Source of the DNA: a virus
Taxonomy: Duplodnaviria; Caudoviricetes
Reading direction: 5' to 3' (one strand)
IMG/VR virus record: IMGVR_UViG_3300032030_002018
Length of the DNA stretch: 64,000 nucleotides
Shown one piece after another: positions 18,287 through 19,885 of this stretch. Every line of letters begins with the position of its first letter. Position 1 is the stretch's first letter. A program made the position numbers and the translations under genes. The notes under the pieces are model-generated. The model did no database searches and was not told the origin of the DNA. It saw only the letters and a program-made list of their open reading frames with translations.

Positions 18287-18530
18287 ATCTCTATCTGTTT
18301 TTATTGGTTTAACTTAATGCAAATGTAAGAAATTTATTTGAATTATCCAAATATTTTGAGAACTTTTTTCAATTTTTTTATAGGTGCGTCCTGAGCACAC
18401 GTCTCTCTGACACAAATGTAAGCAATTTATTTTAATCTACCAAATAAATTAACAAAAAAGTGCAATCTCAATTAAGAAATTGCACTTTCCAACATAAAAA
18501 GTTATTAACCAATAAAACAACAAAGATAGA

Positions 18531-18887
18531 TTATACTAAATCGTCGTCTTCAAAATCTTCTTCATCATCCAACAGACCAAAATACTCCAAAGCGTCCTCA
18601 TCAAAGAATTCATTCAAATCATATTCGTCTGTTAATTGGTCAAGAGTGTGATAGCCGGTTGTAGCATATAGCACACTATCCAATGTATCAATAGATAATC
18701 CATTAATGTTTGTAACAAGTTGAAGCGCATCTTCTGACACAATGCCACTATCTATTAGGAAATCATAATATTGCCTTTCTACATTGCTCATACTCTCTTT
18801 AATCAATCGTTTGTTTATTGCTTTTGTAACTCTTTCTGTAATGAGTTGATTCAAGTCATTTTCAGTTAGTCTAATTCTCTTTTTCAT
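18531..18887 (-). CDS. Acidic protein with N-terminal MKKRIRLTENDL...LIKE motif
   Basis: Motif family; ATATTTAT upstream. Confidence 0.85.
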   Translation of the reverse strand: MKKRIRLTENDLNQLITERVTKAINKRLIKESMSNVERQYYDFLIDSGIVSEDALQLVTNINGLSIDTLDSVLYATTGYHTLDQLTDEYDLNEFFDEDALEYFGLLDDEEDFEDDDLV

Positions 18888-18943
18888 ATCTATATCAATT
18901 TTTTATATAATATAAATATATCAATAGAATGAAAAATACTTTG

Positions 18944-19026
18944 TGCCTACGGTGGGAATCGAACCCACAAGGGATAAATCCCAATGGATTTTAAGTCCAT
19001 AGCGTTTGCCATTTCGCCACATAGGC
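18944..19026 (-). tRNA. tRNA-Leu (TAA)
   Basis: GCCTATG/CGTAGGC acceptor, ATGGA-CTTAAAA-TCCAT anticodon arm, long variable arm, GTGGG-TTCGATT-CCCAC T-arm. Confidence 0.95.
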
Positions 19027-19121
19027 ATACATACAGGTGAGTGAATTAAAATCTTGGAACAATATTTATTATAATCAAAAATTGCTGTAACTCACCTTGA
19101 TGTAAAATTCAGCAACTATAT

Positions 19122-19145
19122 TTATTTGGGACTTGCTCTTGCCAT
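19122..19145 (-). CDS. Minigene MARASPK
   Basis: ATG GCA AGA GCA AGT CCC AAA TAA after an ACCTTTAAT leader shared with 19341-19364. Confidence 0.5.
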   Translation of the reverse strand: MARASPK

Positions 19146-19200
19146 ATTAAAGGTTAACTAATAGTCATTAATTAAAAACTAAAAATTCTTTAATATTCAA

Positions 19201-19263
19201 TTAAATGGGTCGGTCTCTTGCCATAAGTGATGGACTTGAATGTATGTGTGCTTTTGTAACCAT
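19201..19263 (-). CDS. Small ORF MVTKAHIHSSPSL-MARDRPI (internal start at 19224)
   Basis: Ends with ATG GCA AGA GAC CGA CCC ATT TAA. Confidence 0.45.
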   Translation of the reverse strand: MVTKAHIHSSPSLMARDRPI

Positions 19264-19340
19264 AATTGGATAACCCTATTATGCACTATGATGTTGGGGT
19301 TTTGTTTTTATTTAAATATCACCTACTTTTTTCCACAATG

Positions 19341-19364
19341 TTATTTCGGACCGTCTCTTGCCAT
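19341..19364 (-). CDS. Minigene MARDGPK
   Basis: ATG GCA AGA GAC GGT CCG AAA TAA in the normal first-gene position behind the consensus promoter at ~19398. Confidence 0.55.
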   Translation of the reverse strand: MARDGPK

Positions 19365-19449
19365 ATTAAAGGTGTTTTTATTGATTGTTTGACATTGCAA
19401 ATGTACACAATTTATTTTAATTATCCAAATGTTTTGAGGACTTTTTTTT

Positions 19450-19626
19450 TCAACTTTCCAAAAACAATATCAAATCTAATTCGTCTCCAAAGCCTTGTTC
19501 TTCAAGCACTTCTAATGCTCTATTGGATGCCTCACTTCCATCTGTGAGTATTGCATAGAGTCTTCCGTAGAAACCTTGGCAACTTGCCAATCCCTTAATA
19601 GCGTCTAAAATCTGTTCCTTATTCAT
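19450..19626 (-). CDS. MNKEQI family small protein (paralog 2, 58 aa)
   Basis: Manual translation MNKEQILDAIKGLASCQGFYGRLY...; own promoter. Confidence 0.8.
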   Translation of the reverse strand: MNKEQILDAIKGLASCQGFYGRLYAILTDGSEASNRALEVLEEQGFGDELDLILFLES

Positions 19627-19672: not shown

Positions 19673-19885
19673 TTATTTGATATTACCAAATGTTTTGACC
19701 ACTTTTTTCAACTTTTCCAAAAAAATCATCAAATCTACTACATCACTAAAATTCTGTTCTTCAAACAACTCTAATGCTCTCTTGGATGTTTCACTTCCAT
19801 CTGTGAGCCTTGCATAGAGTCTCCCATAATATCCTTGGGAATATGATAAAATCTTAATCGCCTCTAAAATTTGTTCCTTATTCAT
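19673..19885 (-). CDS. MNKEQI family small protein (paralog 3)
   Basis: Near-duplicate of the adjacent gene; own promoter. Confidence 0.8.
   Translation of the reverse strand: MNKEQILEAIKILSYSQGYYGRLYARLTDGSETSKRALELFEEQNFSDVVDLMIFLEKLKKVVKTFGNIK

Follow-up and report, generated by a model that had tools for sequence, protein, structure and literature searches.

Tandem phage minigenes conserved as peptides around a putative ribosome-stalling core

Arrays of one to four ultrashort genes, each 6-10 codons long and built around a four-residue core of the type R-[D/A]-x-P or [R/K]PPP, are found mostly in phages of 211-435 kb, and their substitution pattern indicates that selection acts on the encoded peptide. 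Such a phage probably makes ribosome-stalling mini-messages on purpose, because these 6-10-codon genes are kept as peptides with known or predicted ribosome-jamming motifs. Judged from sequence, translation of the minigenes is very likely and pausing of ribosomes on them is likely. The best explanation, to which we give about even credence, would be arrays of ultrashort ORFs that act in trans and on which host ribosomes pause at proline. A literature search of incomplete coverage found no published description of this family.

The window, meaning the whole 64,000-nt stretch of DNA that was analysed, is part of virus record G000 (334,687 bp, 34% GC, about 96% complete, standard code, 16 standard tRNA calls). 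Since the samples of several relatives are rumen or bovine, a gut Bacteroidales bacterium is the probable host. An earlier note on this DNA had described three seven-codon ORFs, and all three are present on the minus strand where it placed them (Table 1). The minigene pattern has three matches in the window and none in each of 100 dinucleotide shuffles, and a loose MARxxPx-stop pattern has one further match only in the whole 335-kb genome. The start context that two copies were said to share is ACCTTTAAT, common to copies 1 and 3. Relative to the starts of long ORFs copy 1 lies at the 53rd percentile, copy 3 at the 32nd and copy 2, the weakest, at the 20th, and the contexts fall within the 84th-98th percentile of all ATGs. 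The promoter claimed ahead of them is real and of Bacteroidota type, and it is probably early, as had been supposed. The motif TTTG-N19-21-TACATTTG, which we take to be the Bacteroidota housekeeping promoter type, stands ahead of short genes in G000, with 61 matches genome-wide, most of them heading short genes. The ATG of minigene 1 is 33 nt from the -7 box, compared with a median of 31 nt for 40 real genes. An in-frame upstream ATG (MVTK... at 19263) was considered as an N-terminal extension; it exists but is not conserved among relatives, being out of frame in L049 and running into a stop in L056.

Table 1. Features on the minigene transcript and related promoters (window positions)
Feature	Position	Strand	Remarks
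Minigene 1, MARDGPK-stop	19341..19364 (19364-19341)	(-)	core RDGP
Minigene 2, MARDRPI-stop	19201..19224 (19224-19201)	(-)	core RDRP
Minigene 3, MARASPK-stop	19122..19145 (19145-19122)	(-)	core RASP
Bacteroidota-type promoter	19398..19429	(-)	TTTG -33 box 19429-19426; TACATTTG -7 box 19405-19398
Conserved RNA element before minigene 2	19231..19304	(-)	aligned in 12 loci
Long stem AGGTGAGT/ACTCACCT with invariant TTACAGCAA	19028..19104	(-)	inverted repeat I6; directly before tRNA
tRNA-Leu(UAA)	18943-19026	(-)	tRNA scan
118-aa acidic protein gene	18531..18887	(-)	phage's shared N-terminal leader; own strong start context
Intrinsic terminator-like hairpin	18455..18490	(-)	likely transcript end
TTTG-TGTCAG/TGACAG promoter variant	24946, 22948, 20963, 18444, 15740, 12795 and others		

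There is no terminator-like site between the promoter and the tRNA and a terminator scan finds none before 18490, so the three ORFs are probably co-transcribed with the tRNA-Leu(UAA) and the 118-aa gene, whose product matches no Pfam family. The anticodon arm of this tRNA takes six different forms among close relatives (window, L049, L056, L058, L063-L066), a variability expected under escape from anticodon nucleases (PMC10264068). An RNA ligase gene (PF09414) lies about 2.3 kb downstream of the tRNA at 15816-16607 (-). Within the stem that precedes the tRNA, TTACAGCAA is invariant in 11 aligned loci, and three to four similar units occur in the tRNA cluster. A stem-(T)ACAGCAA-loop-stem RNA unit of this kind is repeated near tRNAs (window 19028-19104; G000 311522, 310589, 310499, 309325 and 19548), one copy enclosing a tRNA-like sequence; G000 has no match to a TROVE gene. 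ARAGORN and Rfam give only tRNAs at the minigene loci at curated thresholds, with no tmRNA or other Rfam family, and identities as tmRNA, Y RNA, known ribozyme or type III antitoxin are without support from either.

Several further features of the genome were recorded. Three paralogous genes of 58-70 aa with an MNKEQI start, each with its own promoter, lie at window 19450-19626, 19673-19885 and 17071-17256 (-); the two that were scanned match no Pfam family. The promoter variant ending TTTG-TGTCAG/TGACAG drives noncoding stretches of about 60-90 nt, often ahead of a second promoter, and these could be a small-RNA family. Outside the window, tRNA-Ser(UGA) and tRNA-Arg(UCU) are interrupted by introns of 518 and 569 nt (G000 312660-313272 and 310683-311326) that look group I-like by eye, are found only with the ARAGORN intron option and have no Rfam match. 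A CRISPR-like array of about 10 repeats adjoins a TnpB-like gene at G000 306700-307350.

Relatives of the array were reached by three routes. Homologs of the 118-aa protein led to L056-L061, with two to four copies each. DNA patterns led to L040/L048 and L044/L051, which lie before tRNA-Lys, to a copy in a Bacteroidaceae chromosome (L043/L049/L053/L071) and to the 211-435 kb phages L014, L130, L141, L162, L200, L206 and L209. The third route imposed no DNA pattern: it went through homologs of the genes that precede the arrays in L130 and L209 and led to L217-L227; an array is present in all of these as far as the contigs extend, and the minigenes reached through neighbours include MEVRPPP-stop, MIRDRP-stop and MIKSRDRP-stop. 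Several of the DNA searches imposed the Arg and Pro codons. A search imposing neither Pro nor stop returned three members, about 114 of its 117 matches being chance, and in other searches 36 of 37 and 8 of 9 single matches were chance; single matches lacking array, RNA element or tRNA context were excluded as such. A BLAST comparison with 50,697 GenBank phages yielded nothing beyond tRNA or weak matches, two Lak-A2 stretches contained no minigenes, and one related-locus search with the 118-aa protein and a first viral pattern scan gave no useful match. The collection amounts to 35 distinct minigenes encoding 24 peptides, in phages of about 24-40% GC with unrelated neighbours. The cassette DNA (7.6 kb) contains 40 motif ORFs compared with 0.75 in shuffles, although it was partly selected by the search patterns.

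The chromosomal copy is a phage-like piece of about 400-500 bp in Bacteroidaceae chromosome G001 (L049:5135-5545, L043:1078-1490, L053, L071:3502-3910), found in one of 301 genomes searched. It comprises the end of the upstream gene, two minigenes, the RNA element, the stem and tRNA-Leu, near AAA-ATPase, LRR, restriction-like and Fic-like genes named by eye from sequence; its minigenes differ in sequence yet retain Arg..Pro. A second pseudoknot, of H type and showing clear compensatory changes, precedes a MKIRDST-type minigene at L014:2740-3060, L206 and L130:930-1300, and a further conserved noncoding stretch with a terminator at its end follows; the pseudoknot region has no Rfam match. In four other metagenome contigs (L042, L046, L047, L052) the DNA pattern had matched a palindromic element unrelated to the minigenes, a ATGGCAAGA...TCTTGCCAT hairpin that has a motif in common upstream.

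The invariant part of these genes is only R-[D/A]-x-P or [R/K]PPP with a stop zero to four codons later. The most common core is RDRP, that of minigene 2, with 13 of the 35, followed by RASP (9), RDGP (4), KPPP (3) and RDKP (2), with RAGP, RDMP, RDSP and RPPP once each. Arginine opens the motif in 32 minigenes and is replaced by lysine only in KPPP. The second position is Ala, Asp or Pro; the regular expression and some searches imposed Ala or Asp there, and the neighbour-derived loci agree. Proline at the fourth position is kept, also in loci found without a DNA pattern. The N-terminus, length, stop codon and tRNA neighbour all vary. The earlier note had taken a seven-codon length, ATG GCA AGA and TAA to be fixed, which does not hold beyond the window: lengths run from 6 to 10 codons, Arg is at position 3 in 27 of 35 and otherwise at 4, 5 or 6, tails have 0-4 residues, and the stop is TAA in 29, TAG in three and TGA in three. 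No copy has an internal stop, and there is no suppressor among the 16 standard G000 tRNA calls.

Conservation at the level of the peptide is seen in how the codons change. In frame, 21 DNA cores collapse to seven peptides, compared with 15.1 in a column-shuffled null (minimum 10 in 5000), and the other two frames give 16 of 16, without compression. RASP has eight DNA codings that use both serine boxes, MARASPK being written with TCN serine codons in L040/L048, L044/L051 and L221; AGA and CGA exchange, and all four Pro codons are used across the family. Between L130 and L223 the KPPP copy shows three nucleotide differences, every one of them synonymous. In 23 of 25 cases an A directly follows the Pro codon, perhaps through an RNA-level constraint or shared ancestry. 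The phage minigenes first proposed from the window are therefore borne out, as conserved genes under peptide-level selection, and the opposite outcome, a DNA motif kept while frame, Pro or stop is lost, was sought among homologs and did not occur.

The core resembles motifs known to arrest ribosomes. In mutagenesis of ApdA/ApdP the Arg was irreplaceable, Ala or Gly at the next position was fully tolerated and Ser, Asp or Pro partly, and RAGP supported arrest (PMC12992588). In the source data of that study RAGP, RDGP and RDSP are in the top 50 avoided of 160,000 bacterial tetrapeptides (Bacteroidota bias 0.134, 0.106 and 0.219), the Bacillota top 20 includes RPPP and KPPP, and the commonest cores here, RDRP and RASP, were not found in the avoidance lists (PMC12992588). 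The phage's own proteins (96,555 residues) contain four R[DA]xP motifs compared with 13.1 in shuffles (0/300 shuffles); Arg gives the lowest Poisson probability among the 20 possible first residues, and other spacings are mostly not depleted. PPP is not depleted in the phage proteome (4 compared with 3.0). The fixed Arg-Pro spacing and the free ends fit a nascent-chain motif better than a mature ligand. The proposal that an R-x-x-P core stalls ribosomes thus gains from the core and the family, stalling itself being putative; the polyproline class and the RNA element ending AAGUCCA had both been missed. Two points would speak against stalling. The third motif position of ApdP must be Pro or Gly (PMC12992588), a rule that RDRP and RASP break: Pro or Gly is present there in 9 of 35 minigenes (RDGP, RAGP, PPP) and absent from RDRP, RASP, RDKP, RDMP and RDSP. 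Known RAPP peptides also usually need an N-terminal module (PMC10951233), a part that is missing from a 6-7-mer.

On the preferred reading, translated ultrashort ORFs selected to impede the ribosome would form the payload of the transcript and not a leader for the tRNA. Each RNA would be occupied by up to two to four ribosomes, which would load and pause time after time and lose very short peptidyl-tRNAs by drop-off. The drop-off would tie up the host tRNA-Pro isoacceptors that read CCC and CCG together with rescue factors, of which the phage's own genes would be largely independent. A trans-acting payload is suggested because the downstream element varies, other tRNAs need no leader and the cores are unpaired (except in L209). 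Action in trans and its purpose are held tentatively, at even credence or somewhat below. A tie-up of host tRNA-Pro or rescue factors is a plausible lead idea for the purpose of the stall because of the codon bias, the phage tRNA-Pro, the ready drop-off of short peptidyl-tRNAs (PMC10192219) and the need for Pth in tRNA-Pro turnover in Mycobacterium (PMC9973355). Of the 35 minigenes, 27 use CCC or CCG for the final Pro, compared with 15% of Pro codons in phage genes and 49% in five Bacteroidaceae genes, counts that are not independent because the copies are related and that rest on a small host sample; the only credible phage tRNA-Pro, from a relaxed scan, is UGG. Pth, Pth2, RF-1, deformylase (PDF) and EF-P have no match in G000. 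Against the trans-stall reading, stalled ribosomes would also cost the phage. The widest version, in which ribosome-jamming RNAs of large Bacteroidota phages drain host CCC/CCG tRNA-Pro and rescue factors for codon-selective shut-off or counter-defence, is speculative and rather doubtful.

The arrays could instead act in cis as leaders or sensors, which is unlikely, though it is the strongest of the rivals. A pause that responds to host conditions (EF-P/ABCF activity, tRNA damage) would park a ribosome and so affect the downstream tRNA, noncoding RNA or gene in its folding, Rho access, decay or processing, as in SecM, TnaC and CruR. This stays alive because of the second covarying pseudoknot (L014, L206, L130) and the RNA element between copies 1 and 2 of the window, a conserved and probably structured region in a spacer that had been called unrelated. 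The element consists of an AACCC/GGGTT helix, a small CCA/TGG hairpin and a candidate GTGC/GCAC pseudoknot, followed by AAGTCCA 6 nt before the ATG of minigene 2 (5-6 nt across aligned loci). Two-sided changes occur in the helix (1/500 shuffles, a figure that kinship of the sequences can inflate), and the pseudoknot helix differs in sequence between lineages, singly non-significant (p 0.06-0.5 per sequence). Rfam has no match to the element, and a search of G000 with a model of it yields no site other than copy 1. RNA elements are interleaved with the ORFs, tRNA-Leu or tRNA-Lys follows the array in several lineages, a protein gene does so in L162 and L200, and AAGTCCA can pair with the ATGG start and with the anticodon arm of the window tRNA-Leu, a complementarity that drops when the arm changes. 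In L209 the 3′ arm of a terminator-like hairpin is complementary to the minigene (-20.1 kcal/mol, 0/200 shuffles), whereas pairing between core and downstream RNA is non-significant in the window and in 22 of 23 copies tested, and classical attenuation in the window was rejected on this ground (p 0.6-0.87). The downstream partner is not conserved either, being by lineage a tRNA-Leu, a tRNA-Lys, a structured RNA, a terminator or an unrelated ORF. In L014, L130, L141 and L209 a terminator-like hairpin follows the array with no tRNA and no ORF of at least 60 aa between them. The proposed coupling to a tRNA gene accordingly shrinks to a lineage-specific trait: no tRNA was found at L014, L130, L141, L200, L206 or L209, and these arrays speak against an obligatory link. 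Other G000 tRNAs lie directly behind the same promoter type without minigenes, and one leader would suffice where one to four copies are found.

It is less probable still that the released peptides are the effectors, as short Arg-x-x-Pro ligands directed against a host defence protein, a protease or the ribosome tunnel, or as anti-defence or microcin-like peptides. Peptide-level selection and the rapid turnover of variants among near-identical phages would suit such a role, as would an array of probable early genes beside a hypervariable tRNA and near an RNA ligase. Both termini vary freely, however, four residues make a poor binding determinant, and neither an export signal nor, in the genome, a ThiF/MccB-like enzyme is present; the PPP class, the rare-codon bias and the match to avoided motifs would be left unexplained. 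Signalling peptides, which the earlier note had also suggested, are unlikely because the termini float and an export signal is absent.

That the repeat is a nucleic-acid signal, such as a protein-binding site or a tRNA or intron mimic in which the ORFs are incidental, is improbable. Copy 1 (window 19346-19372) and positions 32-58 of the phage tRNA-Lys(UUU) align without gaps in exact tRNA register, with 21 of 27 identities (E=0.077), so that this tRNA is a possible origin of copy 1 if the likeness is not chance. The conserved A after the Pro codon and a degenerate, untranslatable L209 copy that serves as a hairpin arm point the same way. The tRNA stems cannot close in copy 1, however, and the frame-specific core counts largely refute a nucleic-acid signal, together with the synonymous codings of RASP, Arg and Pro and the three stop codons. 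Descent of the minigenes from tRNA introns was also rejected, copy 1 matching the intron 3′ cores in two tRNA genes only at E=0.66. Selectively neutral remnants of local duplications are very improbable: copies do duplicate and homogenise locally (L059, L049, L056), but conservation across phages of such different GC and neighbourhood, the excess of motif ORFs over shuffles and the synonymous-only changes between L130 and L223 refute this.

Returning to stalling in trans, known arrest peptides sense in cis and carry an N-terminal module, and minigenes of phages are familiar mainly as two-codon curiosities. Arrays of 6-10-codon genes around one stalling-type core, invisible to gene callers, suggest that host translation could be manipulated through the act of translating itself. 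If the ribosome-jamming reading is true, the family would hold several arrest classes (SecM-like RxGP, the new RDRP and RASP cores, polyproline and Pro-stop), its arrest cores would work at five to six residues, and host shut-off or counter-defence would proceed without any protein. RDRP, RASP, RDGP and RDKP would then be natural, evolution-tested candidates on the question of the minimum length of an arrest peptide, from Bacteroidota, a phylum with little-studied ribosomes.

The minigenes resemble RAPP-like arrest peptides (SecM RAGP, ApdA/ApdP RAPP, ApcA, CruR; PMC10951233, PMC12992588) in a fixed three-residue spacing of Arg and Pro close to the C-terminus, with Ala, Asp or Pro after Arg, RAGP itself in L043/L049/L053 and cores among proteome-avoided motifs. 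They differ in having two to five residues before Arg, so that there is no tunnel-spanning or force-sensing module, in a third position that is usually Arg or Ser and not Pro or Gly, and in forming tandem phage arrays without a conserved regulated gene downstream. The bar genes of phage lambda consist of two codons, and their effect is set by the last sense codon. Like bar and synthetic toxic minigenes (PMC2490762), the present genes are phage-borne ultrashort ORFs, copy 1 sitting in a normal start slot, and their lengths would plausibly allow peptidyl-tRNA drop-off (PMC10192219). Unlike bar, they have 6-10 codons, a conserved four-residue core and a variable last codon, and they lack a Shine-Dalgarno sequence and are strongly conserved across lineages. 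EF-P-dependent polyproline stalls and Pro-stop pausing are obstacles inside a protein. The [R/K]PPP copies and the Pro-stop ending of 10 of the 35 minigenes recall these, whereas here a dedicated gene seems to have the motif as its entire product. The microcin C precursor MccA has seven codons and is similar in length and in its N-proximal Arg, but its C-terminal Asn is absent from the three window copies, which end in K, I and K, the length varies among relatives, and G000 lacks a ThiF/MccB-like enzyme (PF00899). On these comparisons the minigene arrays would work like the C-terminal core of SecM and the Apd peptides packaged in the manner of bar, while belonging to neither as defined.
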